Shown here: one piece after another, positions 22,706-53,958 of the stretch
Layout: every line of letters begins with the position of its first letter
How positions within the stretch are numbered: position 1 is the stretch's first letter
Virus record (IMG/VR): IMGVR_UViG_3300042922_001018
DNA: 64,000 nucleotides
Source of the DNA: a virus
Taxonomy: Duplodnaviria > Heunggongvirae > Uroviricota > Caudoviricetes
Direction: 5' to 3' (one strand)
Made by a program: the position numbers and the translations under genes
The notes under the pieces: model-generated
What the model was told of the DNA's origin: nothing
What the model saw: only the letters and a program-made list of their open reading frames with translations
The model's database searches: none

Positions 22706-22708
22706 CCG

Positions 22709-28814: not shown

Positions 28815-28843
28815 GGGGCTAGGGTACCACATGGGTTAGCGAG

Positions 28844-29314: not shown

Positions 29315-29317
29315 TCG

Positions 29318-30047: not shown

Positions 30048-30099
30048 GCGGGCGAGGAGTTGAACCCACCGTCTCCCGAGCGTGCATCGGGTGCTCTCT
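30048..30099 (-). pseudogene. 5'-truncated tRNA-like fragment
   Basis: CCCGA-TGCACGC-TCGGG arm and T-like loop directly after tRNA-His; no 5' D/acceptor strand. Confidence 0.45.
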
Positions 30100-30101
30100 A
30101 G

Positions 30102-30175
30102 GGTGAATAACGGGATTCGAACCCGCGACATCCGCGACCACAACGCGGCGCTCTACCGACTGAGCTATATCCACC
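30102..30175 (-). tRNA. tRNA-His(GTG)
   Basis: G-1:C73; loop TTGTGGT. Confidence 0.93.
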
Positions 30176-30415
30176 ATGCGCCGTTGCGGCTACCTGCTCC
30201 GCGGGAGTCGAACCCAACGGACAGCGGGATTTGAACCCGTAGCGACAACAGCCTTCGCGCTGCTCGCCCCGTGGCGAGTTGTTCAGCGCTGACCGAACCT
30301 GGGGTGCATGCTGCGTCAGGTTCAGAAGAAGTGAGGGACGGGCGGCATAACGCGTACTTGGAAGCGTCCGTGCACAGACTTGTATTCCGACCGCCAGAGG
30401 CCGACCCCGCCCCCG

Positions 30416-30488
30416 TGGACCCAGAGGGACTTGAACCCCCGACATCCTCGGTGTAAACGAGGCGCTCTACCAACTGAGCTATAAGTCC
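30416..30488 (-). tRNA. tRNA-Val(TAC)
   Basis: Cloverleaf; loop TTTACAC. Confidence 0.93.
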
Positions 30489-30571
30489 ATTCGAGTGTCC
30501 GATGCAAGCACCGTCAGACGCACTCGACGCCTGTGACCGCTTATTTCTAGGGTGCAGTTCACTATACCCCG

Positions 30572-30670
30572 TACCCTCTGCGGGACTCGAACCCGCACCT
30601 TGTATCCAGGCTTCGAAAACGCGCTTCCCTGCCGGGGGCTAAGGTTCCCCAACCTCGTACCTTCTGGGTA
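30572..30670 (-). ncRNA. derived tRNA-like RNA
   Basis: Perfect T arm GCGGGTTCGAGTCCCGC; TACCC/GGGTA ends; remainder non-canonical. Confidence 0.45.
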
Positions 30671-31105
30671 GCGAGGCCCGGTCCCGGTGCATCCGCAACG
30701 TTCCTGGAATGACACCCCACCGTTTTTGGGCCGCTCTTCCTTTTGAGCTAAGAAGGTATGCAAGTGGGACTCGCCCGGCTCAGGCTTCACCCACATCCGC
30801 CGTCCCGGACCCATTTCGCACCGAACAGTGGCGGGATTCCTTCGTTTGTCGAACACGCGAAGTGTTCAGTCGCCAGACGACTGGCTGCTCTACCCCGAGC
30901 CAGGGCCGTGGTTCTTGCGGTGCCACGGTACCGTCGGGGCGCCAACCCCTGCTCCTGGCGAATCAGGCATGATGTGAGCGTACAGCATTCATAGCGAGTA
31001 CGCAAGTGGCAAGGCCCGTTAGCCCTCGGGTAGCGAGACGCGTCCCGCCGACTTGCGGAAGCAACGCCGCGCATCTTTTGCTGAGTTGCCCCTCAGCGAG
31101 CCTTG

Positions 31106-31177
31106 CTCCCCCGACTGGATTCGAACCAGTGACGCATCGGTTAACAGCCGAACGCTCTGCCGCTGAGCTACAGGGGA
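31106..31177 (-). tRNA. tRNA-Asn(GTT)
   Basis: Cloverleaf; loop CTGTTAA. Confidence 0.92.
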
Positions 31178-31402
31178 ATAGTGGTGGACGACCCTCACGC
31201 CGCCCGGCCTCACACCGGGACTGAGGCTTGCTTCGCAAGCTGCCTCTCTTCAACGTTGGGCTACGGTCTAGGGGTCGCCCGGTGACGGCTGTTTGTGTCA
31301 TAGGGGCCGTCGGTCCCCATCTCGGGAGAGTCTAGAATCTCCGAGCACGGCGCGTACGCGACGCTGTGTTACAAGCGCCACGGTTTGTATGCCGTCGTAC
31401 AG

Positions 31403-31475
31403 TGGACCTGAGGGGAATCGAACCCCTGACCTCCTCGATGCGAACGAGGCGCGCTACCAACTGCGCTACAGGCCC
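31403..31475 (-). tRNA. tRNA-Ala(CGC)
   Basis: G3:U70; loop TTCGCAT. Confidence 0.93.
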
Positions 31476-31629
31476 GTATGGGCCGACCCGTTGACTGCCC
31501 TCCGGTTTACACACCGGTTCGTGTGGCTGCCCTCCCTCAGTCGCGCGTACGGGTCAAGCCGCGCGGGTGTTCTTTCCTACAGCCGAGGGGAGCGCGAGGC
31601 GCTCTTGCTTCCGCTCCGAGGAGCGGCAG

Positions 31630-31712
31630 TGCCGGACACGGGACTCGAACCCGCACGAGCTAATGCTCACTGCGACCTGAACGCAGCGCGTCTACCATTC
31701 CGCCAATCCGGC
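31630..31712 (-). tRNA. tRNA-Leu(CAG)
   Basis: Long variable arm. Confidence 0.93.
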
Positions 31713-31870
31713 ATAGCAGCGAGCGCCCGAAGACACCCACCGCCACGACGAGCCACCTGTTCTAGCCAGTCCTCTACTGACCCCGGAGTGGTAGCTCCGT
31801 AACCCGCTCGTCATCGGGGTCACAGCTCCTTTCTAGATGCCTCGGGCGAGACTATGCTGTGACTGCTCGG

Positions 31871-31943
31871 TACCCCGCATCGGACTTGAACCGATAACCT
31901 TCCGACCCTAAATCGGACGCCTCTTCCATTGGGCTAGCAGGGC
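31871..31943 (-). tRNA. tRNA-Leu(TAG), short variable loop
   Basis: Loop TTTAGGG. Confidence 0.88.
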
Positions 31944-32038
31944 GAATGGAGCCGCGAGCAAATACCACCGACTGCTCCTTCTCCTCTTCCAGCCCGGATT
32001 GTGGGATGCCGCTGGAAGCGGGCCTCCGAGGAGGCTTG

Positions 32039-32125
32039 TGCGCATGACTGGACTCGAACCAGCACGCCCGTTGTATAGGGCACGGCGACCTCAACGCCGC
32101 GTGTCTACCATTCCACCACATGCGC
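32039..32125 (-). tRNA. tRNA-Leu(GAG)
   Basis: Long variable arm. Confidence 0.93.
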
Positions 32126-32363
32126 ATACAAGGCCGACTCAGTTGTGAACGTGGTCCGCACCTTGCTTACCGTTCTCAGCCGGTGTGTCTGCCTGCCGTA
32201 ACGTGGCAGGGGCCAGAAGGTTCCGTTTCCAGCTCGACGCCTCATGTTGTCGCCAATGAGGAGCTATCCGTCTACGTGACGGCCCGCTCCGAGTACGACT
32301 CGGAGTTCATTGGTGTCGCTACTCGCCAGTAGCGCTCTTTCACGGTGTACGTCCCACCGGCCG

Positions 32364-32436
32364 TGCCCTCAGAGGGACTCGAACCCCCGACCCCCTCATC
32401 CGTAGTGAGGTGCTCTATCCACTGAGCTATGAAGGC
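32364..32436 (-). tRNA. tRNA-Arg(ACG)
   Basis: Cloverleaf; loop CTACGGA. Confidence 0.93.
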
Positions 32437-32634
32437 GTACGGACTCGACACAGCCGCTAAGCCACGCCTGTCCGCGACGGACACTACCCAGCCGCCCTGG
32501 GGCACTCCCTGTCGCCGTGCACGCGCCTGGATATCGAACCGATTTCTCACGGTCTTGTCCTCAACTCCAGGTCTAGGAACTCGCACCAGCCCCGGCGAGT
32601 TGGGGTTACGTCGGGCGGGAAACTCGACGCGTTG

Positions 32635-32707
32635 CTGGAATAGAAGGACTCGAACCTTCAACCTACCGGTTAACAGCCGGTCGCTCTGCCGATTGAGCTA
32701 TACTCCA
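32635..32707 (-). tRNA. tRNA-Asn(GTT)
   Basis: Cloverleaf; loop CTGTTAA. Confidence 0.92.
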
Positions 32708-32713
32708 ATACTG

Positions 32714-32979
32714 TGACCCACCCCACCGGGACTCGAACTCGACTCGCAAGTCACTAGGCTTACGAATCGCTCGGACGCTCGCGCAATCCGACCGGACGTG
32801 TCGTTCGCGACCACGACTGCACAGAGCAAGCCGCCGTCCACCTAAGTGGACCCGCCCCGTTTCCGAGGGCCGCTGAGACCAGATGGTTTCCCACCATGCC
32901 TCCCGAAGTAGCCTCTTGGCAGCCCTCGGGCGGTTTAGGTGTAGACCACCGCGTGTACCAATTCCGCCATAAAGCGGTC
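32714..32979 (-). ncRNA. tRNA-scaffolded RNA with ~190-nt multi-hairpin variable region
   Basis: Leu-type D arm at 5' end, 10-nt anticodon-position loop, T arm and paired acceptor at 3' end. Confidence 0.65.
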
Positions 32980-33005
32980 ACATTGAAACGTCTTGCGACG
33001 TTCCG

Positions 33006-33078
<73 letters not shown>

Positions 33079-33082
33079 ATAA

Positions 33083-33193
33083 CCTACCGTCTCGTTCATA
33101 GAGCCAGCCCGCTCTGCCGATTGAGCTACCGCCCCTTAGAGGAGCGAATGGGACTCGAACCCACAACCGGCCAGCCGTGCACGATACGGCAAG
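33083..33193 (-). ncRNA. YrlA-like Y RNA (circularly permuted tRNA mimic)
   Basis: Long terminal stem, then T arm, acceptor stem closed by CTA loop, then D arm. Confidence 0.85.
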
Positions 33194-33250
33194 TCCCTCC
33201 AACGCTCCGGAGCGCTGGGTTGAATCGAACGCTTGCAACCGTCCGACCAG

Positions 33251-33324
33251 TCGGGATAACAGGATTTGAACCTGCGACTTCTCGCTCCCAAAGCGAGCGC
33301 TCTACCAAGCTGAGCTACACCCCG
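33251..33324 (-). tRNA. tRNA-Pro(TGG)
   Basis: Cloverleaf; loop TTTGGGA. Confidence 0.93.
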
Positions 33325-33563
33325 ATGTGAGCTGTATCGGGCATCCCCGCCGGACTTCTCGCGTGTCGCAAGACACGCGATTCACCGGAGCGACTTCATC
33401 ACGGGGTTCGCGCCCTAAGGGTACGCGTTACCGCGACTGGTCACTGTTCATGAACACGTGGAGTCCAAACCTTTAGGCGCCCGTCGGCCCCTGTCAAGGT
33501 CTGTCGCTCCTCCGCCTTGGAGCACGCCCGTTACCGGGTCGAGGTGAGTGTTCATCACCACCG

Positions 33564-33636
33564 TGGAGCCTAGGAGATTCGAACTCCTGACATCCTGCTT
33601 GCAAAGCAGGCGCTCTACCAACTGAGCTAAGGCCCC
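33564..33636 (-). tRNA. tRNA-Ala(TGC)
   Basis: G3:U70; loop TTTGCAA. Confidence 0.93.
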
Positions 33637-33878
33637 ATTCGGTTCAGGAAGATGCGAGACTCGGCCTTGCTCACGGGTGCCCCCGCGAACTACCTCCACT
33701 CGACGCTGTGTTCTGTCTTCCATCGCCTAGAAGTTGTCGCACCGTTCCATCATCCCGGCAACCCCTTGCGGGACCAGTCGGAGAATCGAACTCCCCGGAA
33801 ACTTCAACTTCCTAAGCACGAGCGTACCATGCATCCACATCGTACGCAAGTCGAGAACTCGATGAGTCTCGAAGAATC

Positions 33879-33957
33879 AAGGGAGCGCGCTCTTATGCCG
33901 ATTGCACCACCCCGCCCGACCGGGCGGGGACGGGACTCGAACCCGTATCTCTCCCTT
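33879..33957 (-). ncRNA. compact circularly permuted tRNA mimic (YrlA-like)
   Basis: AAGGGAG/CTCCCTT ends; T arm; CCCCGCCCG/CGGGCGGGG closed acceptor; D-like segment last. Confidence 0.75.
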
Positions 33958-33959
33958 CG

Positions 33960-34033
33960 TCTGGGTAACAGGATTTGAACCTGCGACCTCCGCGTCCCGA
34001 ACGCGGCGCTCTACCAAGCTGAGCCATACCCAG
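33960..34033 (-). tRNA. tRNA-Pro(CGG)
   Basis: Cloverleaf; loop TTCGGGA. Confidence 0.92.
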
Positions 34034-34226
34034 TCATCGAATGGTCAGACGCCCTGTCGAACAGGTTCGGCCCTGGTCACTCCGGACTCGCAAGCTGTTT
34101 TCTGATTTCACTCGACTTTACAGTTCCACGCGGCGAACTCCCCATCCACGGCGCTCACCGTGACCGAGGAGTGGACCCCGGCGCCGTACACTAGCGCGGA
34201 GCTACTTGCGCTAGGTGTCGAACTTG

Positions 34227-34300
34227 CGACCCTGACGGGACTTGAACCCGCGACCTCCGCCGTGACAGGGCGGCACGCTAACCAACTGCGCTACAGGGCC
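34227..34300 (-). tRNA. tRNA-Asp(GTC)
   Basis: Cloverleaf, G73. Confidence 0.93.
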
Positions 34301-34377
34301 ATAGGCGGACCGAAGTGTCAACCCGCCATGGCAACACCCTAACGTGGGTGTCAGACGACAACCGAATGGTTGCACTG

Positions 34378-34451
34378 CGAGACCGACGGGACTTGAACCC
34401 GCGACTTCCACCGTGACAGGGTGGCACTCTAACCGACTGAGCTACGGCCCC
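34378..34451 (-). tRNA. tRNA-Asp(GTC)
   Basis: Cloverleaf, G73. Confidence 0.92.
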
Positions 34452-34572
34452 AGAGAACGACAAGTAGTGGTGCATCCCGCCTGCGCCCCATTCAGGCGCG
34501 CCGACCCATATAGGGCCGAAGGCACTTCTCGTCGCAGGAACAGTCCACGATGCACTCGCTCGCCGTTCTTTG

Positions 34573-34646
34573 TCGCCCACGCTGATTTCGAGTCAGCGAC
34601 CTCCGTCCCCCTATGGGACGGTGCTCTACCTCTGAGCTAGTGAGCG
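34573..34646 (-). ncRNA. tRNA-like RNA with 9-nt anticodon-position loop
   Basis: CCGTC-CCATAGGGG-GACGG; T loop CTCGAAA. Confidence 0.68.
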
Positions 34647-34979
34647 TCAACGCCACCGTAGCGGCGCCGTGGTGTTCTACAGCCGCTCCGATGCCTCGGC
34701 CTACGGACTGCTCACCACTCGGGACTTTCACCCGTGTGACCCCCGCTCGCGCCCTTCCTATGTATTGCGACGCGGCGTCCGAGGCGGTCGCTATCTCCGC
34801 CTCAGTGTTCTACTCGGCCCTAGGTCTTGCCGAGTCACGCGTGACCCACCCGGAGGCGTCACGCTTACAGTTTCAAGCTGGGCACTTGTTCCCTACACTG
34901 CCAGGAAGTCGGTTTCACGCTGACCGACCTAACGGGGAGGACGACACGCAGCGAACGTATCGGCGGACCCTGTCACCAG

Positions 34980-35052
<73 letters not shown>

Positions 35053-35383
35053 ACACAGACCGCCTACCAGTTGACCGCTGGTCGGCTTCCGGACGCTTCA
35101 GAGAAGGTCAACTGTCCTTCACGCCGGGTACCCTCGTCTGCAAGGGGTTGACTCAACAGGCGGACTCCCGAGTCGAAGGAGCGGGATGAACCGAAGCCAG
35201 GACACCATCCTGCTCACAATGAGTATGCTTCGGCATGACTGCCCTACGCCGTGCGTAGCACGGTCGCTGATGGAGTGGTCTCAGAAAGCTTAGGGCTGCT
35301 TCGCGCTCCGTATCGCTAGGCTGCCAGTATTACGGCGGACCGCATTGACCTTATCCTGAGAGAGCAAGACCTTGCTTGCTACG

Positions 35384-35456
35384 AGGGACGTGGGGGATTC
35401 GAACCCCCGTCATCACTTTGGAAGAGTGAGGTACTAGGCCTCTATACGAACATCCC
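35384..35456 (-). tRNA. tRNA-Gly(TCC)
   Basis: Loop CTTCCAA, U73; Glu-like D arm. Confidence 0.88.
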
Positions 35457-35714
35457 ATAGCCTGATTCACGGTTGTTGTTACCGAGAGTCGCTCGCACCA
35501 TCGAGCACAGGCCGCTGACTGTTTCGCGCATCGGAGGTAGATGGTTGCAACGTCCGAGTCGCCATGCGTCAAGGACACCTACCTGTTCCCGCTTACGGCG
35601 GTGAAGCTATTCGACTTGCTCACACTCTGCTGACAGCCAACGGATTCCGTAAGCTCTCAGCAAGAGTGCGAGCGCAGGTCGCTACCCCTGTCCTATCCGT
35701 CAGACTGGAACGGT

Positions 35715-35912
35715 CTAGTTGCCACTCTCGAAGAGAGCAGTTTCAAGTTCGTCGCGACTCGACAGCGGCATGACCCGCCAGAAGTAGTCACCGTCATCCT
35801 CCGGAAGCCGGAACTCCAGCTCCCCGATTTCTTCAGCGCTGAACGGTCCGTACACCGTGGTGTAGTCCGCGTCGCCGTCGCTCCGTACGATGACGTGTGT
35901 CTTGTCACTCAT
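35715..35912 (-). CDS. small acidic hypothetical protein
   Basis: TGATAGAGT-N6-ATG. Confidence 0.65.
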   Translation of the reverse strand: MSDKTHVIVRSDGDADYTTVYGPFSAEEIGELEFRLPEDDGDYFWRVMPLSSRDELETALFESGN

Positions 35913-36086
35913 TCCCCTACTCTATCACGAGATGAGGGGACCAGACCGGCCGCTGACGCACGCGATTTGCGGCTCCACCGTCCACACGGCCGGTCATGGG
36001 GTCTGCGCTAAAGTCAAAGACTGGGCGATTCGTCAAAATGAACCCATCAGCCGGGAGACAAGCGGCGCATTCGCCTGCTATTCCTG

Positions 36087-36158
36087 TAGGCCCATAGGGA
36101 ATCGAACCCTAGACACTCGGATTAAAAGTCCGCAGCTCTACCACTGAGCTATAGGCCC
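36087..36158 (-). tRNA. tRNA-Lys(TTT)
   Basis: Cloverleaf; loop CTTTTAA. Confidence 0.92.
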
Positions 36159-36292
36159 GCAGCACGCTGCACCTTTGCCATTTACGCCACCACAGCGTCA
36201 GGGTCATTGGATAAGGCGAGCTTCACCTTGGATGCCCACCGTAGCTTCCGTCCGCCTTGGTAGTGCGACGCGAGAAGCATGGTGAGCAGGGG

Positions 36293-36377
36293 TGGTGCCA
36301 GTGGAGAGATTCGAACTCCCGAAGCATTACACGGCTGATTTACAGTCAGCTCCCTTTGGCCACTTGGGTACACTGGC
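36293..36377 (-). tRNA. tRNA-Tyr(GTA)
   Basis: Long variable arm, encoded CCA. Confidence 0.93.
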
Positions 36378-36535
36378 ATTCATTCGCCCGACCGGAAGCC
36401 GGGTGAATCAATAGCGGATTGAGACCGAGTCTGCGGGGCTACCCACTCCCTCGAAGAAGACGCTGCCTCCTACCGCTCTATGGTTGGTCGGCTACCCCTC
36501 TTTCCGCTTCATGACGCGAGGTCGAGGAGACCTTG

Positions 36536-36608
36536 TGCACCCCCTGGGACTTGAACCCAGAACCCACTGATTAAGAGTCAGTTGCTCTGCCGATTGAGCT
36601 AGAGGTGC
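36536..36608 (-). tRNA. tRNA-Lys(CTT)
   Basis: Cloverleaf; loop CTCTTAA. Confidence 0.93.
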
Positions 36609-36824
36609 GTAGCCAAGGGCGCTCCCCGGCAGTTCCATCGCTTCGAGCAGTGCGCTCGCGAGGCATACCGATTAGCGGCCCTTGGCCGTTAAAACTTCAT
36701 CCACTATGGAGTTCCCAAAGAACACCCGCCGTATCAACTTCCGTCTCCCGACGAAAGAGGTTGCCCACCATGGTGGGGGCGGTGGACTCGACGTTACCGG
36801 GTTACCCCGATTCTGTCAAGTTCG

Positions 36825-36897
36825 CGGGTCTGACAGGACTTGAACCTGCAACCGGCGGTTTTGGAGACCGCTGCTCTACCAATTGAGCTACATACCC
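36825..36897 (-). tRNA. tRNA-Trp(CCA)
   Basis: Cloverleaf; loop CTCCAAA, G73. Confidence 0.92.
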
Positions 36898-40305: not shown

Positions 40306-40562
40306 TGCATCCCACTTTCGTCAGTCGTGCTGTTCATCGTACCACTGGTCTCAGAGGACGAGTCGAATCGCTCAGACGCGAAGTCTCCGTTGTGTCGCAA
40401 CGCCTCGGCTTCCAGGAACTCCAGGTTCTCGGGAGAGTCCTTCATAAAGCCCCAACGCAGCGGATTTTGAGGGCACTCGAAGCACTCAACCATCAAGGTC
40501 AGGTGCGTGTCCTCGGGACTCAAAGAGACCGGGACGACCGTAGCACGATGCTCATTCGGCAT
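40302..40562 (-). CDS. small CxxC...H protein
   Basis: ECFECP...HN; coupled. Confidence 0.6.
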   Translation of the reverse strand: MPNEHRATVVPVSLSPEDTHLTLMVECFECPQNPLRWGFMKDSPENLEFLEAEALRHNGDFASERFDSSSETSGTMNSTTDESGMQ

Positions 40563-41235
40563 CCGAAGCCTCCAGCTCCGTTCCTTCGGCGTTCATGTCG
40601 CCGAAGTTTGCCACCGTGAAAGGACCGGCATGAGTCCATGCGAAGACGAAGTTCGAGCCGTCACCTTCAAGGTCACCGAAGGACACCACCCAGGAAGTCT
40701 CGCTTCCCAGAAGCTCATTGAACCGCTCATCGTCCTTGTAAGACAGCACGCAAGGAAGTTCATCCAGGCCGAGGTGACACTGCGCGGAACCATCCGAGAA
40801 CAGCGTAGCCTGGACCGTGCCGTACTCGAACTGGACCGTTGCACCTTCGACGCGCTCGCGACCCTGCTCGAAGAACCATCCAGCGGAGAGAAGGATGAGC
40901 GCCCCGAGAAGGGAAGCAGCGACGAGCGGGAAGAGAGCATTAGCGAGAGTGCGCCAGAACGTCGGGCGGAGGGGAGAGTCAGCAATCTCCGGGTCGTCGG
41001 CCGCAATCGTCTGAGCCGCGCCATACTCGCGGAAACGCCTGGCCGCATGAGAGCTGATGAACCACGCTACGACGCCGACGATGAGGAAACCTGCGGCAGC
41101 CCACGGGATTGTGTCCGGGTTCGCCGCGAACAGCAGTTCCGCTCGACGGTCTACCGCACCGACAGCCTTGAAGCCGAACAACGCGGTGAACACGACGAGG
41201 GCGAAGGCCACAACGGGCCACAGAACGAAACGCAT
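40552..41235 (-). CDS. membrane protein (3 TM)
   Basis: Hydrophobic segments. Confidence 0.72.
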   Translation of the reverse strand: MRFVLWPVVAFALVVFTALFGFKAVGAVDRRAELLFAANPDTIPWAAAGFLIVGVVAWFISSHAARRFREYGAAQTIAADDPEIADSPLRPTFWRTLANALFPLVAASLLGALILLSAGWFFEQGRERVEGATVQFEYGTVQATLFSDGSAQCHLGLDELPCVLSYKDDERFNELLGSETSWVVSFGDLEGDGSNFVFAWTHAGPFTVANFGDMNAEGTELEASDAE

Positions 41236-42662: not shown

Positions 42663-43406
42663 TCAGCGGCGACGGCCGTGCGACTCGGAGTCGCGCTGGG
42701 CAATACGCGCGTCCCGCTCAGCCATGAAGCTGTCGAACTCGTCAGTCTGACGGAAGTCGCGCAGGTCTTCACGGAGCTGCTCCAGCTCGGCCAGGATACG
42801 GCTGTCGTACGGCTCGAAGCCTGACTGGTCGAAGCCTGCATCCGTGCAGAACGCGTATCGTGCGCGTACTGTTTCTACGGTGCCCTGGGCACCACCGATT
42901 GTGACGGGCGACTGACGAACCTTCGCCGCCTCGATGTCGCTTCCCGTGAGGTCAGCGTAGTACCACATCTGGAGCGCGCGAGCAACCTCGCGCGCCTCAT
43001 GACGGGGGATTTCCGGCTCGTAGGAAGCCGCCCACTGCTGTTCGGCACTCTGAGCGCCACTGGCGCGGGCGCTATCGACCTTGGTAATCCAGGCAGCAGG
43101 GTTCGCCTCCTGCTGGACCTCCCAGTCCGGGTTCATGTCGTAGAGCGCCTGTCCTGCCGCGTCCGCGCCGCTTTCGATGTAGCGGGTGCGTGCGATGGCG
43201 TAGGAGACCCGCATGGCGTCCAGCGCCGACGAGGGAACCGGGACACTCTTCCAGAACCGGATGACCTGCTCCGCGTTGGTGTAGCTGGCAGGCGGGTACT
43301 CGAAGCTTGCGTCGCCGAACTCGTTCAAGCCGATTTCTGGAGCAGAGCCTTCCTTCTCCGAGAACTGGCCGGTGGCGGTACGGGGTTGCATGTCACTCAT
43401 GGTCAT
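42663..43406 (-). CDS. PR..DG.F..PE-tagged protein 3
   Basis: QPRTATGQFSEKEGSAPEIGL; GCCTACA-N7-ATG. Confidence 0.8.
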   Translation of the reverse strand: MTMSDMQPRTATGQFSEKEGSAPEIGLNEFGDASFEYPPASYTNAEQVIRFWKSVPVPSSALDAMRVSYAIARTRYIESGADAAGQALYDMNPDWEVQQEANPAAWITKVDSARASGAQSAEQQWAASYEPEIPRHEAREVARALQMWYYADLTGSDIEAAKVRQSPVTIGGAQGTVETVRARYAFCTDAGFDQSGFEPYDSRILAELEQLREDLRDFRQTDEFDSFMAERDARIAQRDSESHGRRR

Positions 43407-43428
43407 AGTTCAGTGTAGGCAGGAGCGC

Positions 43429-46400
43429 TCAACGGAAGCGAGGCGGCGTCGAAGCGCTCGAACCCGGCTGCGGCGCCACGGACGGTGCCGCAGCCTTACC
43501 GTCCAGGATGAGCCGTCGTGTCGGTCCTGCGGTCGGCGTGGCCGGTCCTGCGTTGCCTCCAGGAATGACGCGACGCGTCTGCGGCGTGCCAACGCCACTC
43601 AGCTTCGTGTTCGGGTCAAAGAGAATCTGACGCGGTGCGACCTTCGCGAACGGAGTCGCCGAGTTCGCGGGGGCCGCAGGAAGCGGCGGGACCGGACGGC
43701 CAGCGACCGGAGCACCCGTTACCGGGGTACGGGGCTTCGGAGGACGCGAGGACGGCGCTGGGGCCGAACCGCCGCCACCGTCGCGACGGTCGCGACGCGT
43801 CTGGTTGTTCGCCTTCTGCTGCTCCGCAGCCTGCACAGCCTGCTCCGCCTGGTAGTTGCGGTATGCCGCCATACGGTCACGTCCCGTGACGTTCGACGCT
43901 GCGCGCTTCGTAACGCCCCACGCCGCGCCAGAGGCCTTCGCCGTGGCGTAGGTTGCTCCGACTGCGGTCGCACCGATGACCCACGAGGAGCCTGCGGTCA
44001 TGACGCCGCCACCGACGACAGCCGCGCCGACGGCCACCTTCTTGGCGTCCGACTTCAGACGGTCCTGACGCGCGATGCGGAAGCCGACCTCGTCGAACGT
44101 ACCGTTCTCGTCGGTGTACTGCGCCCGCAGGTCGTCGCCACGGATGTGCTGAATCGGGTGCGCCATCGTGTTCGCGGTCGCCTTGACACCGTTCCACAGC
44201 TCGGAGCGACGCTCGGCCACGTTCTGCTTCGTGCTGAGCCATGCGTTGCGCATACCGTCCGCGCCCGCGGCACGCAGGTTGCGAGGGCCGTTGGCGGTGC
44301 CACCAGCCGCGAGGCCACCGGCCACCCGAGCTTCGGACTTCTGCTGAGAGGCGTACACGCGAGCAGCCATGCGCTCCTGACGCGCTGCGGCGTGTGCCTG
44401 CTGGCGCTGGTCGCGACGAGCAGAACCGAGGAACCCGCCAGCCGCAGCGCCACCGGCAGCCGCAGCGGCCGTACCCAGACCCTTGCCTGCACCAGCGGCA
44501 CTCGCTGCACCAGCCGCAGCCGTACCAACGCCACCAGCGGCAGCGCCCGCGGCACCGAGACCACGTCCAGCCGCACCCTTGCCTCCGGTAGCCGGAGCGA
44601 GCATGCCGCGGCCCATCGAAGCGCGGCGCTCGGCCATCGTCGTGCCGAAGCGACCACCCGAGACCTTGCTGAGGGCGGAAGAGCCAGCGCCCTGGATAGC
44701 CTGACGGCCCGAACGTTCGATAGCGCTCCGAGCCATACGGCCACCGATGAAGCCGCCGACAGCGCCACCCGCCGCTCCAGAGGCGAGACCGTAAGCGATG
44801 CCGCCCTTCATGGACATCGGCGAAGGCATCTTCAGCACCTTCTTGAAAATCATGTTCAGCGAGATGACCGCTAGCACAGGAGCCGCAGCCGCCCATCCCA
44901 GGGCCATGACGGTACCAGCGCCGAAGGAGCCGTTACCGAACTGCACCAGGATGAACGTGGTGAGAACCACCACGGAAAGCAGGACAAGCGACAGCGCTGC
45001 GAACAGCATCGACCCGATGAACTGCTTAGCCGCCGCCCCGAGCTGCTCCAGACCGTTCGCACGGAAGAGCGCCAGAATCATGATGGGCAGGATGGTAATG
45101 GTGCCGAGGACCACGAAGAGCTTCGCGATGACAACGGCAAGCGCCATGCCGAAGAAAATGCACATCATGATGAACGCGCTTACTGCGTAAATCAGCAGCG
45201 GGAACATGTTGCCAGCCGCGTTAGCGCCGTTCAGCGATGCGAGGTAATCCTGGATGTTCGCCTGCGTCGAAGCGTTCGAGATGTTCTCGGTCTTCTTCTC
45301 GATGTCGCTCATGGTGTAGCCGACCGAGAGACCACCCTCGAACTCGTTGTCCGTAGGCTTCTTGTTCCACCACTTCTGGCACTCGTCGGCAGCAACCCCC
45401 GAGAGCTGGTCCCAGCCCGTACGCCACTGCCACGTGCCAGCGCCACGGTTCGACGGCTCACAACCGGCCCAGCCGACCATCGCGCGCTGAATCTGCTCAG
45501 CCGAGGAGGCGGTCCAGACGAGCTGTCCCGTGTCACGAGCGCTCGCCGGGATGCCCGACGCGGCCGTGAAGTCGGCAGCGTTACGGGCGGGAGTCTGAGT
45601 CCAGCCATCCAGGAGACGGCAGTAGGAGTATTCAGCGTACTGGCTGGTTCCGAGCTGAGCGCTCTTCCAGACGGGCAGACCCGTCGTACGCCACATCGAG
45701 TCCATCGTCTGCGTCAGAGCGATACGAGGGGTCGCCAGAGCCGTCGGAGACGCACTCTCGCGGAAGCGCTTGTCGTACAGGTTGACGGACTCCGCGCAGA
45801 GGTTGTTGTTCGCAGTTCCCGGCGCACGGGAGCGGTCCGCGTCAATCTGGCCGCTGGTCTGAGTCTGAACGGTAGCGAGAACTGCACCGACAGGGACGCT
45901 TGCGGCGGTCGAGAGGGAGTCGTTCGCGATGGTGACAATCCAGCCCGGCGAACCGACGCCAGGCTTGTACTGACCGCCCGCAGTGGTCGTGGAGTTCTGC
46001 GCTCCGACCACCATAACGACGAACACGGCCATCGTCGCGACCAGCCCGGCGATACGCCGGAAGAGCATAGCGCTGGCGCCTGGCCCGGCCTTACGCCAGG
46101 ATGCGAACATCCAGATGCCCACCACCACAATCAAGATGAGAGGGATGAGAGCTACGCCGGAAGATGGATTCAGCATCGACTGGCCGAGGGTGGCGCCGAT
46201 TTGGTCCATCTGTGCACCCAGCATGTTGATGGGTTCGAAGTTGATAGCGAGGTCAGCGACCCACTGCGAGACGGTCCAGAAGCCGTTGCCGACGGCCATG
46301 ATGTTGCCCTGGAGCATCGTGCGCGAAGCGGCGTTCATCAGGTCGCCGATGGCCCACATGTCGTACTTGTTCTGGAAGCTCGCCGTAGCGTCACGCCAGC

Positions 46401-46869
46401 GATTCAGCAGAAGGTTCTGCGAGATAGCCGCACGCTCTGCCTGGGCCTCAGGGGACATGTACGGGCCACACGAGCCATCACAGGCTCCGATGGGCGCCCG
46501 GCTGCCATCCGCTGAAGTGATACCGCTGGGCAGGGCGGTAGACGATGCCTGTTGCTGCGTCGGCGCTCCATCGACGAAAGCAACAGCACCCTGCCCAGCG
46601 GATTCCGGGGTCGCGCCGATGACGGCAGGCGCGACAGAGTTGGCGATGGAGTCAGAAGGCTCCACGGATGCGACAGCCACACCGGTAACGGCGACCGTCG
46701 CGAGCATCAGACCAGCGAGAGCTGCGATGCCGGTCTTTGCGAAGCGTCCACGCCACGTTGCGCGCTTCGATGAATCTTTGGCCTTGCGGGGCGTGCCCGT
46801 CAGGCGTGCGCGGGAAGCCTCAGCAGCCTCATGCATCGGAAGGAAGATGCCACCAGTCACTTTAGCCAT
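43429..46869 (-). CDS. large polytopic membrane protein, VirB6/TrbL/TcpH-like architecture
   Basis: Multiple TM blocks, Cys-containing extracellular domain, long Ala/Gly-rich and Pro-rich tail; family is inference. Confidence 0.55.
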   Translation of the reverse strand: MAKVTGGIFLPMHEAAEASRARLTGTPRKAKDSSKRATWRGRFAKTGIAALAGLMLATVAVTGVAVASVEPSDSIANSVAPAVIGATPESAGQGAVAFVDGAPTQQQASSTALPSGITSADGSRAPIGACDGSCGPYMSPEAQAERAAISQNLLLNRWRDATASFQNKYDMWAIGDLMNAASRTMLQGNIMAVGNGFWTVSQWVADLAINFEPINMLGAQMDQIGATLGQSMLNPSSGVALIPLILIVVVGIWMFASWRKAGPGASAMLFRRIAGLVATMAVFVVMVVGAQNSTTTAGGQYKPGVGSPGWIVTIANDSLSTAASVPVGAVLATVQTQTSGQIDADRSRAPGTANNNLCAESVNLYDKRFRESASPTALATPRIALTQTMDSMWRTTGLPVWKSAQLGTSQYAEYSYCRLLDGWTQTPARNAADFTAASGIPASARDTGQLVWTASSAEQIQRAMVGWAGCEPSNRGAGTWQWRTGWDQLSGVAADECQKWWNKKPTDNEFEGGLSVGYTMSDIEKKTENISNASTQANIQDYLASLNGANAAGNMFPLLIYAVSAFIMMCIFFGMALAVVIAKLFVVLGTITILPIMILALFRANGLEQLGAAAKQFIGSMLFAALSLVLLSVVVLTTFILVQFGNGSFGAGTVMALGWAAAAPVLAVISLNMIFKKVLKMPSPMSMKGGIAYGLASGAAGGAVGGFIGGRMARSAIERSGRQAIQGAGSSALSKVSGGRFGTTMAERRASMGRGMLAPATGGKGAAGRGLGAAGAAAGGVGTAAAGAASAAGAGKGLGTAAAAAGGAAAGGFLGSARRDQRQQAHAAARQERMAARVYASQQKSEARVAGGLAAGGTANGPRNLRAAGADGMRNAWLSTKQNVAERRSELWNGVKATANTMAHPIQHIRGDDLRAQYTDENGTFDEVGFRIARQDRLKSDAKKVAVGAAVVGGGVMTAGSSWVIGATAVGATYATAKASGAAWGVTKRAASNVTGRDRMAAYRNYQAEQAVQAAEQQKANNQTRRDRRDGGGGSAPAPSSRPPKPRTPVTGAPVAGRPVPPLPAAPANSATPFAKVAPRQILFDPNTKLSGVGTPQTRRVIPGGNAGPATPTAGPTRRLILDGKAAAPSVAPQPGSSASTPPRFR

Positions 46870-47342
46870 CCTTCGGTATCAATCTGCTGCTTGCGACGCC
46901 GTGGCGTCGGGGTGGTCAGGACCGCGGTAGGTGCGACCTGTTCGTATTCGGGACGAAGCTCGATGTCCAGCGGACCGACCATAGCCAGATACGAAGGAGA
47001 GATGGTTTCGTTACATACGAATACTACACCATTCTGCGCCTTACGCTTGTCCCACATGGCCTCGTAACGACGAAGGCCGAGACCGTCGCGCGTACGACCC
47101 TCCACGAAGAAGAAGGTCAGGGCCACGACAATGAGGGGGATGGTCAGAAGAACTACTACGCCCGGCATCATGCCGAACGAGAAGGCGACCGGAGCAATAA
47201 GGCCCACAGGGATAAGAGAAGCCAGGAGAGCCATCACGGTCACGATGAACGACCGACGCGAGATTTCGAACGTCGCCAGGACCATTGTCCGGCCGGTGTT
47301 CTTCTTCGCGCCAGTCAGGCTGGTCATCGAGAACATGTACAT
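46857..47342 (-). CDS. two-TM protein, PrgI/TcpE (VirB3)-like architecture
   Basis: TM hairpin then RTRDGL basic region; family is inference. Confidence 0.5.
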   Translation of the reverse strand: MYMFSMTSLTGAKKNTGRTMVLATFEISRRSFIVTVMALLASLIPVGLIAPVAFSFGMMPGVVVLLTIPLIVVALTFFFVEGRTRDGLGLRRYEAMWDKRKAQNGVVFVCNETISPSYLAMVGPLDIELRPEYEQVAPTAVLTTPTPRRRKQQIDTEGWLK

Positions 47343-47434
47343 GGTTGTTACCTATTATCCCATCTGGGCGAACGAGAAGTGGCCGAGCACCCGAAGGTGA
47401 CGGCCACTTCCCTGCCGTTGGAAGGCCGTCGGGG

Positions 47435-47728
47435 TTACCGTACGACCGAGTTGACGATGGTGATGAGGAAGCCGACGATGAACTGAAGAACACCGATGAT
47501 GGCCGGAATGACGAGCTGTGGACCAGCCAGTGCGCCCGCGAGGACGACGGCAATCCACGGGAAGCCCTGCATGCCAGCCCCGCCACCCTTGCGTCGCTGC
47601 CACAGCCATACGACCACGGAGATGACGAGGATGACCACACCCAGCACCGTCATGAACGTCAGAACGTTCGACGGTACGACTGCGATGAGACGGTTCCAGC
47701 CGTCCACCCAGTTGAGGCCACTACCCAT
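47435..47728 (-). CDS. small two-TM protein, TcpD/VirB2-like architecture
   Basis: 97 aa, two hydrophobic helices, basic Gly loop; GAAAGG RBS. Confidence 0.5.
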   Translation of the reverse strand: MGSGLNWVDGWNRLIAVVPSNVLTFMTVLGVVILVISVVVWLWQRRKGGGAGMQGFPWIAVVLAGALAGPQLVIPAIIGVLQFIVGFLITIVNSVVR

Positions 47729-47866
47729 TGTTGTCTACCTTTCGCTAAGAACCGCTTGATGCGGGCATAGGGGTTGTAGGCGGCGAACGGGTCGCGGGTG
47801 TCACTGTAAGAGACTTGGAGCGCCTCCTATGCACCCATCAGAATAGCAAGTCCACGCATCAAGAGT

Positions 47867-47919
47867 GAACGCGGTGCCAACCCCGAGATAGCTGTCATCT
47901 CAGGGTTGGCACCGCGTTC
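47867..47919. terminator. long inverted repeat, probable terminator
   Basis: GAACGCGGTGCCAACCC / GGGTTGGCACCGCGTTC after stop of 47931 gene. Confidence 0.7.
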
Positions 47920-47930: not shown

Positions 47931-48713
47931 TCAGCAGCCCGCCAGAACCGAGGTGAGCGCCTGCTGGTCCGCGGCCGGAATCGTCAGCTCATACTTCTGG
48001 AGGACGGACGTGAAGTCAACGGCATATGTGCAGTGGTAGGAAGCCGAAGCGGGCATCCACGTGGACGGTCCCTGGTCCGACTTGGAACCGTTCTGCGGTC
48101 CGTCCACGGCCTTCAAGTTGATGGGGTCGTTGGCGAAGAGGATGCGCGTGTCCTGGTCCCAGCTCTCAGCGCCGTTCTGCCAAGCCCAGCTCAGCGGGAT
48201 GACGTGGTCAATCTGGACAGCCATCGAGTCGCCCGTGTTCTTGCCGAAAGCGTTCGTGTGAACGAAGTCGATGGTCTTGCCGGTGTACACATCGTTCAGG
48301 ACGCCGACCTGGACCTCGCAGTCGCCCCGGAAAGTCTCGAACGAAGCGAAGTCACGCTTCAGGATGTCGTTGCGCGTGTCGCAGCCGTTGCCGTCCACGT
48401 CAATCCATCCGTCGCCGAACTGCGCCTTGCGGTCATAGTCCGTGCTCGGGTCAGCCTGCGTCGCCGGAAGCGAAGCGACGAATGCGCTTGCCTCATCGTA
48501 GATGTCGCCCGCGACCGGCTGCTCAGGAGCCGTGGACTCGACAGGGGCCGGAACGACCGCCGACTCGGTCGGCGCCGGGGAGAAGGTCTCGACCGCGGCG
48601 GGGCGCTGTGCCTGCATCGCGTTGAACCCGGCGACAGCGACCAGGACGGCCCCGAGGAACACCAGGATGCCGATGATGGCGACCGGGCGGAAGAAGCGGT
48701 GAGAGTTCGTCAT
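47931..48713 (-). CDS. secreted/membrane HNH nuclease (DUF1524-like)
   Basis: TM; CDTRNDILKRD, QIDHVIPL, ANDPINL, NGSKSD. Confidence 0.88.
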   Translation of the reverse strand: MTNSHRFFRPVAIIGILVFLGAVLVAVAGFNAMQAQRPAAVETFSPAPTESAVVPAPVESTAPEQPVAGDIYDEASAFVASLPATQADPSTDYDRKAQFGDGWIDVDGNGCDTRNDILKRDFASFETFRGDCEVQVGVLNDVYTGKTIDFVHTNAFGKNTGDSMAVQIDHVIPLSWAWQNGAESWDQDTRILFANDPINLKAVDGPQNGSKSDQGPSTWMPASASYHCTYAVDFTSVLQKYELTIPAADQQALTSVLAGC

Positions 48714-48858: not shown

Positions 48859-49317
48859 TCATCCGGGTGTCGGCTCATCCTCCGCCTTCGGAGCACGGGC
48901 CTGGCCGGTCGTCGCCTTCCAGGGGGTTCCACCGCATCCCAGCGTCAGCGAACACTTCTTCGTGGAAGGTGCGCTGAAGGCCAGGAAAGAGTAACGCTCG
49001 CACTTGTCGCAGACGGCGACTGTAACGCCATCCCCGTCACGGTCCGTTGGGACGCGAAGATACTGGATGATGTCGAGATGCTTCTCCAGCAGCTCACGCT
49101 GGTCGTCCGGAAGGACGAAGCCCATCATGTTCTCCGGCGTCAAGTCCGCGAAGCTCTTGATGTTCTCCGGGAGCAACGGCTCCTCAGCCTTCGCTCGCTC
49201 ACGATTCAGCGTGGTCACGTTCGACTGGGCAGCCTTCATCAGGACAATCGCCAAGTTCGCAGCGCGCGCCAAAGGCGGCAGAACCGGGTTGGTGCGGAAA
49301 GTACGAGAGCGGGCCAC
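48859..49317 (-). CDS. hypothetical protein with C-terminal Zn ribbon
   Basis: CDKC...CSLTLGC. Confidence 0.7.
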   Translation of the reverse strand: MARSRTFRTNPVLPPLARAANLAIVLMKAAQSNVTTLNRERAKAEEPLLPENIKSFADLTPENMMGFVLPDDQRELLEKHLDIIQYLRVPTDRDGDGVTVAVCDKCERYSFLAFSAPSTKKCSLTLGCGGTPWKATTGQARAPKAEDEPTPG

Positions 49318-51009: not shown

Positions 51010-51820
51010 GGAACCGAATACCTAGTCTGTCGAAGTCAGGGGTGTCGGCGTTCAACGCCTCACGCGCATAGTCTAGCGGCATACCACTCTCCAACGCAAG
51101 GATGATTTCCTCAGCCGTTCCCCACCAGTCATGCAAGAGCGCCACATCGGCCAGCGGGACACTCCGCTCCCGAGCGAGATGCAGAAGGTCACATCGGACG
51201 AAAGCCGGAACCGTCAGCAAGCCCTGCGTGATGAGTGCCTCTCGGAGCGGCCCTGTGGGCCTGTAGACGAAGAACTCGGCCAGCTCCGGTCCGGAGAAGC
51301 CCTCGTCCAGAAGCCACCGCACAGCGCCATCCTGGGTCGATGCATACAGCCCGGCCGCGAACAGCATGAGCGCGGACTCATCGGAAGCGTCGAGGAACGC
51401 ATTCCGAAACGACTGCGGCATAAGGGCCGCATACGCTGGATGGAAAGCCAGGTCGCGAATGAGGCCCGCCATCTCCTCGGCAGTCAGACGCAGCGCAGCG
51501 GGGACGGCTAGAACGATACTCAGCGCGTTCGTCCGGTCCCCGAAGTCTGAAGGGTCCGCTCCAGAGCTTCGGAGAAAATCCTGCACCTCGTTCTGGTCCT
51601 TGAACGTCTCCGCCGCTTGCAGCCAGTTCATTGCATCGTACGGCGACGGAGATACCCGAGCGCCTACAAGCCTCTCAGCAAGGTCCGGAGTGACGCCCAT
51701 TCGGTTCAACGCCTCAGACATCGGTACCCGCGAGCTACCGTCGGATGAGGCCATCGCGTGTCGCGCGAGAGCGGTCGGTGACTGCGCCTCCACAACGACA
51801 TTCGGCCACTCCACGGTCAC
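51002..51820 (-). CDS. GVP.EY-repeat family protein
   Basis: SGMPLDY C-terminus. Confidence 0.7.
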   Translation of the reverse strand: MTVEWPNVVVEAQSPTALARHAMASSDGSSRVPMSEALNRMGVTPDLAERLVGARVSPSPYDAMNWLQAAETFKDQNEVQDFLRSSGADPSDFGDRTNALSIVLAVPAALRLTAEEMAGLIRDLAFHPAYAALMPQSFRNAFLDASDESALMLFAAGLYASTQDGAVRWLLDEGFSGPELAEFFVYRPTGPLREALITQGLLTVPAFVRCDLLHLARERSVPLADVALLHDWWGTAEEIILALESGMPLDYAREALNADTPDFDRLGIRFRD

Positions 51821-53958
51821 CGCTTCCTAGCGAACTTCTTGCCAGTCGGGGTCTTCAGGAAGCGTTCCAATGCGATGTCGATGAGCTTCATCATGATTTC
51901 CGACGGAGTGTCCAGGTCACGGTCACCCGTTGCCACAGCGACCTGAGTGTCCGCCTGGTCGCCGTAGATGGCCTTCAGGGTCATGCCCTTTCGCAACAGT
52001 GCGCTCTGGATGTGCTCGTCGAGTGTGCCCAAGGCCACCATCGTCGTGAGCATGAGATGGTCTGCGGATGCCCCGACTCGGTGCGACCGGTCCTCAGCCT
52101 GCACAACCATCGCAGGAGTCCAGTCCGTCTCCACGAACAGATGGTCACTCGAACGCGTCAGAGTAACGCCCACACCCACGGCGGTAATGGAGCAGACCAG
52201 CACAGCAACCTCGCCGCGCTGGAAACCATCAATCAGCTCGTCCTTCTCATCCGTCGTCGTACGACCGTCGATAAGACCGGAGCGGCCGAGAGACGGGTCG
52301 AGAGCCGCGACCATAGCATCCGCCGTATCATGGTGATGAACCCAGACGATGAGAGGACGCTCCGGCGCCGAAGCCACGAAGTCCCGAATCCATTCGGCGG
52401 CGATGTCCACCTTCGCGAGCGCTGCCGCCACACGAAGGCGGGAGACGAAACGCAGGTTCGACTTCGCGAACTCCTCCATCTCCTTCCCCTGAGGCAGCTC
52501 GCCGGTCTTCTTCACCGTCGAATCGAACCACTCCTCGATGTGCTCGATGATGGCCTTGTGCGCTTCTCGATACGCCTTCAGTTCCACCTCAACGGCCAAC
52601 TCGCTACGGAGCTTCTTCGGGAGGTTGGGGAGCACCTGTGCCTTCGTACGACGTACCCACACGTGCTGTTCAAGCTTCTGCCGCAGCTCACCGAGCGTCG
52701 TCTTCCGAGGCACCCAGGCATCGAACGAGTTCTGGTAGCAGTAGCGCTCCAGGAACTTCTCCGCACCGCCGAAGACAGGACCGAGATGCCCGGTGAAGTC
52801 CAGCAGTGCCACGAGTTCCTGCGGACTCTGGAACACAGGCGTGCCCGTAAGACAAATGGGCAGCTCTGCCTGGTATCCGAGAGCAATCATCGCGCGAGCA
52901 CGATGCGAGGTCGGCGTCTTGATACGGTGCGCTTCGTCAAGGATGACTGCCTGCGGCGCCCACGCGAGCATCCTCTTCAACAGCTCGGGACGGGCGCCGA
53001 GAAGAGAGTCGGCAACGACGATGACGCCGCTCTCGGGGAACTCCGGCTCTTTCTTCTTCGAGCTGATGACAACCACTTCGCTATCCGGGAACTGGCCTCC
53101 CAGAGTGGGTAGTCCGGAACGCTTCGCCTCACGCGCCCAGTGGGTAAGAACGACAGGCGGAGCCGCGATGAGTGTCCGCCGGACACCCTTGATGGACGCA
53201 GCCGCAAGGGCCTGAAGGGACTTGCCGACCCCAGGCTCATCGAACAATCCGAAGTGTCCGGCCGCAACCGCCATCGAGCCGACACGCTGGTACGGGAAGA
53301 GGTTGATTTCGTCGCCACCGAACCACTCCGGCACATCCCCGATAGCGTCGATGAGGCGTTGAGCTTCCTCATCGTTGATGTCGAGGATAGTCGTCGCCTT
53401 CGCGATGTCGGCCACGCCAGCGGCAATGTCCGAGCGGGTGTGTACTCGGGCGACATTCTCCCGTGCCAGCTCGATGACTTCACCCATGAAGATGACCCCA
53501 GGGCGAGGCTCACCGTTCAGGAGCGCGTCGGTGACAGGCATCTCGAACCGGGAAGTCGCCTTGTCCCAGCGGGTGCCGTTCCCCAAGCGCTTCTTCGCTT
53601 CGTCGTATCCGGCAAGCCTGTGACGCGCGAGCAGACCACTCTTCGTGGCGTTCAAGATGACGACCGGCTCGAACAGCTCGTTGAGAGAGGTCAGACCTTC
53701 GAACGTAGGGTCGGTAGCAAGCGAGTAGTCCACGGAGATACCCGCGCGTTCGAATAGCGCGTCCGGCATGATTCCGTCACGGGTACCGCGCACCAGCCAC
53801 CAGCCCGACTGGCGACTGAAATAAGCGCCCAGCCACTCCATGAACTGAAGCATGTTCTTCTCACCGTTGTGAGGATGAATGGCCGTCGGCTCTACTCGAA
53901 CCTCCAGATACGGGTTCCAGCGAGTGCCGCGGAGCCGCGCGTATCCAGTATGTGCCAC
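51817..53958 (-). CDS. SNF2-family (SF2) helicase
   Basis: DEPGVGKS, DEAH, LTGTP, GVGVTLT, QAEDRSHRVG. Confidence 0.92.
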   Translation of the reverse strand: MAHTGYARLRGTRWNPYLEVRVEPTAIHPHNGEKNMLQFMEWLGAYFSRQSGWWLVRGTRDGIMPDALFERAGISVDYSLATDPTFEGLTSLNELFEPVVILNATKSGLLARHRLAGYDEAKKRLGNGTRWDKATSRFEMPVTDALLNGEPRPGVIFMGEVIELARENVARVHTRSDIAAGVADIAKATTILDINDEEAQRLIDAIGDVPEWFGGDEINLFPYQRVGSMAVAAGHFGLFDEPGVGKSLQALAAASIKGVRRTLIAAPPVVLTHWAREAKRSGLPTLGGQFPDSEVVVISSKKKEPEFPESGVIVVADSLLGARPELLKRMLAWAPQAVILDEAHRIKTPTSHRARAMIALGYQAELPICLTGTPVFQSPQELVALLDFTGHLGPVFGGAEKFLERYCYQNSFDAWVPRKTTLGELRQKLEQHVWVRRTKAQVLPNLPKKLRSELAVEVELKAYREAHKAIIEHIEEWFDSTVKKTGELPQGKEMEEFAKSNLRFVSRLRVAAALAKVDIAAEWIRDFVASAPERPLIVWVHHHDTADAMVAALDPSLGRSGLIDGRTTTDEKDELIDGFQRGEVAVLVCSITAVGVGVTLTRSSDHLFVETDWTPAMVVQAEDRSHRVGASADHLMLTTMVALGTLDEHIQSALLRKGMTLKAIYGDQADTQVAVATGDRDLDTPSEIMMKLIDIALERFLKTPTGKKFARKR

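Follow-up and report, generated by a model that had tools for sequence, protein, structure and literature searches.

A block of three co-oriented membrane-protein genes lies at positions 43429–47781 of IMGVR_UViG_3300042922_001018, a 64,000-nt stretch of DNA filed as a tailed-phage record in IMG/VR; hereafter, the whole stretch is called the window. The locus raises the question of why genes with the look of a conjugation apparatus should sit on DNA that has been taken for that of a phage. The preliminary description of the locus had read the block as a conjugation-type membrane operon within a phage-like genome, perhaps that of a phage-plasmid hybrid. As described below, the three-gene module probably represents the membrane core of a very divergent conjugative type IV secretion system (T4SS) of the Gram-positive type (MPF_FA-like), which is carried by a megaplasmid-like actinobacterial replicon of ∼450 kb and in which the largest protein is an extended VirB6. 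On this reading, the module is standard machinery of conjugation in an unusual form and no trait of a phage.

The giant protein and its small partners

The module is composed of three open reading frames (ORFs) on the minus strand, which encode proteins of 97, 161 and 1146 residues. The 97-residue gene (47435–47728) comes first and is followed by the 161-residue gene (46857–47342) and by the gene of the 1146-residue protein (43429–46869), which is referred to as the giant protein. The stop of the 161-residue gene and the start of the giant gene overlap by 13 nt; the two genes are translationally coupled. According to hydropathy analysis, the 97-residue protein contains two hydrophobic helices with a basic RRKGGG loop between them, whereas the 161-residue protein contains one N-terminal cytoplasmic stretch, a single two-helix hairpin (residues 30–84) and one tail of ∼75 residues. 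The giant protein has about seven hydrophobic helices (residues 46–70, 231–260, 267–294, 551–605, which were counted as two, 615–648 and 651–679) and one hydrophilic loop of ∼255 residues (295–550). From about residue 700 onward, composition analysis by 100-residue blocks revealed an Ala/Gly-rich and then Pro-rich tail. The gene sizes, the two-helix and polytopic topologies, the common orientation, the GCCTACA motif before the module and the tagged gene after it had all been listed in the preliminary description, and all were confirmed by the ORFs, the hydropathy profiles and the motif positions.

The giant protein is very probably a divergent extended VirB6 of the TcpH/Orf15 type, a membrane subunit of T4SS, as indicated by its fold, by profile-profile matches with a negative control and by sub-threshold Pfam TrbL matches. 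Extended VirB6 proteins possess at least five hydrophobic helices together with large central or C-terminal domains that are hydrophilic or unstructured (PMC12857230). The giant protein has the same architecture, with its ∼7 helices, its central domain of 255 residues and its low-complexity tail of ∼450 residues. Based on 73 family sequences, the AlphaFold2 model of the core (residues 130–700) has a predicted local distance difference test score (pLDDT) of 88.2 and a predicted template modelling score of 0.85. The core model was compared with 48,161 representative chains in a structural search that is independent of Foldseek. The best match is VirB6 (TrwI) of R388 (7o3v_F), with 255 of 261 residues aligned at a root-mean-square deviation of 5.0; its Z score of 11.5 is within reach of long-helix proteins whose helices are merely arranged alike, and one designed helical repeat reached Z 10.4, which counts against the VirB6 assignment. 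Legionella DotA, which is listed as the Dot/Icm homologue of VirB6 in a 2025 T4SS review (PMC12857230), ranks third, with a Z score of 8.0 and 267 residues aligned.

Because Z scores in this range are ambiguous for helical proteins, sequence-level tests were sought. In HHalign comparisons, the profile of the giant family matched TcpH of pCW3 with a probability of 90.4% (E 1.4e-6; query 569–659 against TcpH 328–418) and Orf15 of Tn916 with a probability of 60.2% (E 8.5e-5; query 559–646 against Orf15 322–407), and the two matches cover the same region of the giant protein. TetA(P), an unrelated major facilitator superfamily protein with 12 transmembrane helices, was used as the negative control and gave only 0.4% against the same family. 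The aligned segment corresponds to helices 4–7 (residues 559–659; 44893–45195, minus strand). Pfam searches of two complete related plasmids pointed to the same place: on the whole of Bifidobacterium breve pMP7017, the only match to PF04610 (TrbL/VirB6) is located inside the homologue of the giant protein (E 2.1e-5), and the only PF04610 match on one Arthrobacter plasmid is also located inside its giant homologue (E 0.045). Both TrbL matches sit in the helix region covered by the TcpH and Orf15 alignments. The VirB6/TcpH-type identity that the preliminary description had proposed for the 1146-residue protein is thus supported by the top-ranking fold, by the TcpH and Orf15 matches against a clean control and by the positionally unique TrbL matches.

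The central domain (residues 295–550; 45220–45987, minus strand) is hydrophilic and mostly helical, and it contains four Cys residues that are invariant in the family (C358, C417, C470 and C497). When folded alone, it was modelled with a pLDDT of 81.5; the best structural match has a Z score of 4.0 and Foldseek returned nothing below E 1, so that no structural relative was found for this domain. The low-complexity tail (residues ∼701–1146; 43432–44769, minus strand), which is Ala/Gly-rich and then Pro-rich both by composition and in the family consensus, contains one conserved Gly/Ala-rich hydrophobic patch at residues ∼945–985 and ends in a Pro-rich terminus. The tail may act as a spacer through the wall or as a docking site for cargo, or it may be mere disorder. 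In a profile search of PDB sequences, the giant protein gave only noise from this low-complexity tail.

The 161-residue protein may well be a small subunit of the VirB3/PrgI type. It has the plan of VirB3, PrgI (PF12666) and TcpE (PF12648), being small and having one two-helix hairpin, and its look-alike cluster in a protein language model gave a weak PrgI signal. On pMP7017, the PrgI model matched a single gene, the small one just upstream of the giant homologue (E 0.007). Within the family of the 161-residue protein, sub-threshold PrgI matches were obtained for 2 of 36 members (E ∼0.1) and for the orthologue at the metagenomic locus L012 (E 0.23); following the hairpin, the family motif E-x-R-T...[LI]-R-R-Y-[EQ] lines up with PrgI at positions that are invariant in the family. 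HHalign comparison of the family with the 134-residue gene of pMP7017 was not significant. The complex predicted for the giant core and the 161-residue protein scored 0.00, which neither supports nor speaks against binding. The VirB3/PrgI/TcpE analogy of the preliminary description is plausible in view of the hairpin plan and the weak but recurrent PrgI signals, whereas no profile match of significance accompanies it.

The 97-residue protein is probably an obligatory small partner and has no family match. It had previously been likened to VirB2/TcpD; this identity was not sustained, since the TcpD comparison found no profile match and VirB2 is reported to be absent from T4SS of Gram-positive bacteria (PMC12857230). 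Seven orthologues of the protein gave no Pfam match at E ≤ 5. Pfam and PHROGs yielded nothing for the three module proteins and their neighbours, the PHROG search having covered seven neighbours.

Several further results weigh against the interpretation of the module as a T4SS membrane core. Foldseek found nothing in the PDB for the giant core, and the comparison between the giant family and PrgH of pCF10 was not significant (HHalign 3.8%). The gathering threshold of PF04610 is 25.9 bits; the best relatives attained 16.9–20.9 bits and the window protein has no Pfam match. Therefore, the giant protein is filed as a remote VirB6-type homologue, not as a member of PF04610. For the 161-residue family, the HHalign probabilities against TcpE, PrgI and Tn916 Orf17 are 0.15%, 4.3% and 1.5%, respectively, none of which is significant; for the 97-residue family, they are 0.2% against TcpD and 0.1% against the 98-residue ORF upstream of PrgH on pCF10. 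No VirB4, coupling protein, relaxase or VirB8-like gene was found within the 64-kb window, in agreement with the earlier statement that VirB4 and a coupling ATPase are missing there.

Relatives and the nature of the replicon

Profile search of 1.84 billion representatives identified 614 matches to the giant protein at E ≤ 1e-3, each standing for one cluster at 50% identity, and 364 of them have E ≤ 1e-30. Among the best 150 of the 614 matches, the lengths range from 596 to 1782 residues and are mostly ∼900–1200. No scanned member reaches a Pfam threshold, and the family has no Pfam model. The 1252-residue protein of pMP7017 is a full-length member (HHalign 99.96%, E 6e-39, 546 columns). The assignment made here gives a function to a large unnamed family, whose members are called hypothetical on every plasmid record that we examined.

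The order of the 97-residue, 161-residue and giant genes is kept at four metagenomic loci (L010–L013). Three of the four also keep the tagged gene downstream and, upstream, the genes of an SNF2 helicase (51817–53958, minus strand), of a 152-residue protein (48859–49317, minus strand) and of a membrane-anchored GmrSD_C nuclease. Gene order, motif position and neighbours are held in metagenomic relatives down to 62% identity, and the bare gene order persists at ∼28% identity, as it does on two named plasmids. Judged from this sequence conservation across relatives, the module is more than a chance arrangement. The 97-residue protein evolves most slowly: its identity is 94–98% where that of the giant protein is 74–86%, and orthologues occupy the same position at L010–L013, on the Arthrobacter plasmid and on pMP7017.

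The gene directly upstream of the module (47931–48713, minus strand) encodes a GmrSD_C/DUF1524 nuclease of HNH type with an N-terminal membrane anchor, and it is kept there in three relatives (50–76% identity); on pMP7017, one DUF1524 gene of 36% identity is located ∼5 kb from the module. Two genes past the module on its downstream side, the minus-strand gene at 40552–41235 encodes a 227-residue protein with three hydrophobic helices, which is 81% conserved in L011 and has no family match; it is possibly an envelope component.

Homologues of the giant protein were found by tblastn on nine actinobacterial megaplasmids, which belong to Arthrobacter, Pseudarthrobacter, Paenarthrobacter, Curtobacterium and B. 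breve (pMP7017). The annotations of the Arthrobacter plasmid and of pMP7017 show the small-small-giant order with overlapping stop and start, and they call each of the three genes hypothetical. On the Arthrobacter plasmid, a homologue of the 161-residue protein (29% identity, E 4e-11) is encoded beside the giant gene, and the 161-residue protein belongs to a family of Micrococcaceae megaplasmid proteins. Since synteny with the module on the Arthrobacter megaplasmid (L001, 3865–7194) extends to the SNF2 helicase (41% identity) and the 152-residue protein, the conserved block exceeds the three membrane genes.

These plasmids carry DnaE, LigA, RNA ligase and helicases, and they gave no match to the HK97 capsid. 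The Arthrobacter plasmid encodes one VirB4-type AAA_10 ATPase ∼17 kb from the giant gene (46.9 bits against a cut-off of 27.5) and one CHAP hydrolase of 779 residues 1.6 kb from it; across the relatives' plasmids, AAA_10 ATPases exceed the cut-off, and no T4SS-DNA_transf match reached its own. Neither this ATPase nor the 873-residue ATPase beside the module on pMP7017 matched any PDB sequence. In the window itself, the minus-strand gene at 62485–63105 encodes a small secreted protein with a clear signal peptide and an NKESGW motif, whose match to the SLT transglycosylases is weak and not significant (E 0.0018); the protein may serve to open the cell wall, but its gene is 15 kb away from the module.

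The replicon is megaplasmid-like and actinobacterial, with a size of ∼450 kb. The window contains 53 tRNA genes and one transfer-messenger RNA (tmRNA) gene in an array on the minus strand (17966–36897), together with RtcB, the small subunit of ribonucleotide reductase (RNR), and SNF2 and UvrD helicases; it was this content that prompted the label phage-like. The tmRNA gene is located at 29317–29701 (minus strand) and encodes the tag ANATRNDLALAA. Two of the tRNA calls made by ARAGORN (17966–18038 and 18897–18969) have two-base anticodon loops. However, pMP7017, whose conjugation has been demonstrated experimentally (PMC10832533), also carries an array of 20 tRNA genes and tmRNA. The giant protein has no tblastn match in 50,697 phage records, no megablast match and, in single-protein scans, no relative in IMG/VR or among genome contigs; the match to a tape-measure or other virion protein that was looked for by these searches and in PHROGs was not found. 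The phage-like, or phage-plasmid hybrid, frame of the preliminary description therefore finds no support, as the relatives reside on plasmids of cultured actinobacteria and the gene content in question also occurs on one conjugative plasmid. A tRNA array, tmRNA, RtcB and RNR on a replicon do not make that replicon a phage.

In PLSDB, MOB-suite labels all nine family-bearing plasmids as non-mobilizable, including the conjugative pMP7017 (NZ_KM406416.1). The conjugative pCW3 (NC_010937.1) is labelled only as mobilizable. For Gram-positive systems of this kind, automatic assignments of mobility cannot be relied on. The module is probably one part of the machinery by which giant actinobacterial megaplasmids transfer, and standard typing misses it.

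The GCCTACA motif and rival explanations

GCCTACA occurs 15 times in the window, compared to 4.7 expected copies, and none of 100 shuffled sequences reached this number. The copy in front of the module (47775–47781, minus strand), which shows the extended core C-n-GCCTACA, is located 46 nt upstream of the ATG of the 97-residue gene. The next copy (43414–43420, minus strand) lies 8 nt past the stop of the giant gene, with 7 nt separating it from the ATG of the tagged gene at 42663–43406; it marks the 3′ boundary of the module, and relatives show the same layout. On the 5′ side, between the nuclease gene and the module, one perfect stem-loop of 24 bp was found (47867–47919, minus strand), with a predicted folding energy of −50.2 kcal/mol (z −7.7; none of 200 shuffles was equally stable). 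It likely delimits the unit on the 5′ side as a transcription terminator or an insulator.

Six genes of the window, that at 42663–43406 among them, have their ATG exactly 7 nt after a minus-strand GCCTACA (motif starts 62479, 61058, 60496, 59778, 43420 and 38194), and their products share one N-terminal tag of ∼28 residues with the core PRAxDGKFAEKxGxxPE. By its position, the motif resembles a dedicated promoter of leaderless type for this tagged gene set. The module and the tagged genes share the promoter motif, and this sharing is real; the aligned promoters have only C-n-GCCTACA in common. The copy of the module is kept in L010, L011 and L012, although the flanks in L012 have diverged. The distance from motif to ATG is 38–46 nt for the module and 7 nt for the tagged genes, so the regulation need not be identical. 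A mini-ORF of seven codons after the module motif was considered as a functional upstream ORF and was rejected; of three relatives, one retains it, one has it fused and one lacks it. The published 34-bp regulon motif of pMP7017 was not found upstream of the module of pMP7017 itself.

The shared motif bears on the alternative that the VirB6-type channel has been repurposed, or serves two purposes, and mainly exports the tagged proteins, which would make it an effector-translocating T4SS and not a simple DNA pore. We consider this explanation unlikely. It would account for the presence of C-n-GCCTACA at both the module and the tagged genes and for its retention at the module in relatives, as well as for the tagged gene that directly follows the module, both here and in three relatives; DotA is an example of a T4SS channel that translocates hundreds of proteins (PMC12857230). 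However, no link between a translocation signal and a receptor was seen, the spacing between motif and ATG differs (38–46 nt versus 7 nt), and pMP7017, which bears the module, is known simply as conjugative and does not carry its regulon motif before the module. That the module forms a membrane complex outside secretion, such as one for entry or surface exclusion, for envelope remodelling or for transport, whose likeness to VirB6 is a matter of generic helix packing, seems very improbable. All Pfam signals being below threshold, the Z score of 11.5 being ambiguous for helical models, the central domain having no known fold and no T4SS ATPase being adjacent in the window would fit such a complex; yet VirB6-family proteins are two of the top three structural matches among the 48,161 chains, HHalign gave two independent matches to VirB6 homologues of Gram-positive systems in one common register while the hydrophobic control stayed clean, and the family occurs on plasmids that carry VirB4-type ATPases.

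That the genes are those of a jumbo phage or phage-plasmid, with a giant protein like a tape measure and small proteins like holins, is barely credible. Apart from the 53 tRNA genes, tmRNA, RtcB and the RNR subunit in the window, one look-alike cluster of the 97-residue protein carries the automatic Atlas label 'putative phage holin'. Against this stand the absence of any match to the giant protein in the phage records, IMG/VR and PHROGs, and the homologues on named plasmids that lack an HK97 capsid match, together with the occurrence of a tRNA array and tmRNA on the conjugative pMP7017.

If the module is the membrane core of a conjugative T4SS, as we prefer, the giant protein would consist of one VirB6-like helix bundle that is interrupted by the family-specific Cys-bearing domain of ∼255 residues and is followed by the long low-complexity tail. 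By analogy with the solved pentamers of VirB6 and DotA, it may form the central translocation channel or platform and thereby the exit route for DNA, and possibly for proteins, from the donor. The promoter of the module would be of the GCCTACA type, which is the replicon's own and is found at the tagged genes as well; since this promoter type is shared, the module and the tagged genes may well be switched on together. It is conceivable, but rather doubtful, that the module is part of one dedicated GCCTACA regulon with the tagged genes and that the conjugation machine of these giant plasmids doubles as an injector, which would deliver the tagged proteins as an 'establishment proteome' into the recipient along with the DNA and would handle this cargo through the four-Cys domain or the long tail. 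The promoter common to the channel operon and the tagged genes provides a testable link between one secretion channel and one candidate set of cargo.

Comparison with known systems

Like the giant protein, TcpH of Clostridium perfringens pCW3, Orf15 of Tn916 and ConG of ICEBs1 are large polytopic proteins in which a VirB6-like bundle is combined with hydrophilic or unstructured domains (PMC12857230). In the systems of pCW3, Tn916 and ICEBs1, the extended VirB6 is accompanied by small two-helix membrane proteins, as is the case in the window. The likeness to TcpH and Orf15 extends over no more than ∼90 columns, which lie in corresponding helix regions. Compared to TcpH (832 residues) and Orf15 (725 residues), the giant protein (1146 residues) is larger; its extra parts are one N-terminal region of ∼160 residues, the central four-Cys domain of ∼255 residues and the Ala/Gly/Pro tail of ∼450 residues. 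On pCW3 and Tn916, the extended-VirB6 gene sits with the genes of VirB4 and a hydrolase in one compact operon, whereas the module of the window stands apart from any ATPase.

Among the small subunits, PrgI of pCF10 and TcpE, the VirB3 analogues of Gram-positive T4SS, have the same small one-hairpin plan as the 161-residue protein. Different from the genes of PrgI and TcpE, which precede VirB4, the 161-residue gene is coupled to the VirB6-like gene, and its product has no significant profile match to them.

VirB6 (TrwI) of R388 (PDB 7o3v) and DotA of the Legionella Dot/Icm system (PDB 9ngy), the first and third structural matches of the core model, share only 7–13% sequence identity with it. 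Both form central pentameric assemblies that serve as channel or platform (PMC12857230). R388 and Dot/Icm are systems of Gram-negative bacteria and include VirB5 and VirB2 as partners, both of which are missing from Gram-positive systems.

On pMP7017, B7017_RS00270 (1252 residues; hypothetical in the RefSeq record) and two small upstream genes show the same small-small-giant order with overlapping stop and start. Although it is a full-length homologue, B7017_RS00270 is only ∼18–26% identical to the giant protein. One large AAA ATPase gene is located directly upstream of the module on pMP7017, whereas no such gene is so placed in the window. With 190 kb, pMP7017 is smaller than the window replicon of ∼450 kb; like the latter, it carries a tRNA array, tmRNA and a DUF1524 nuclease.

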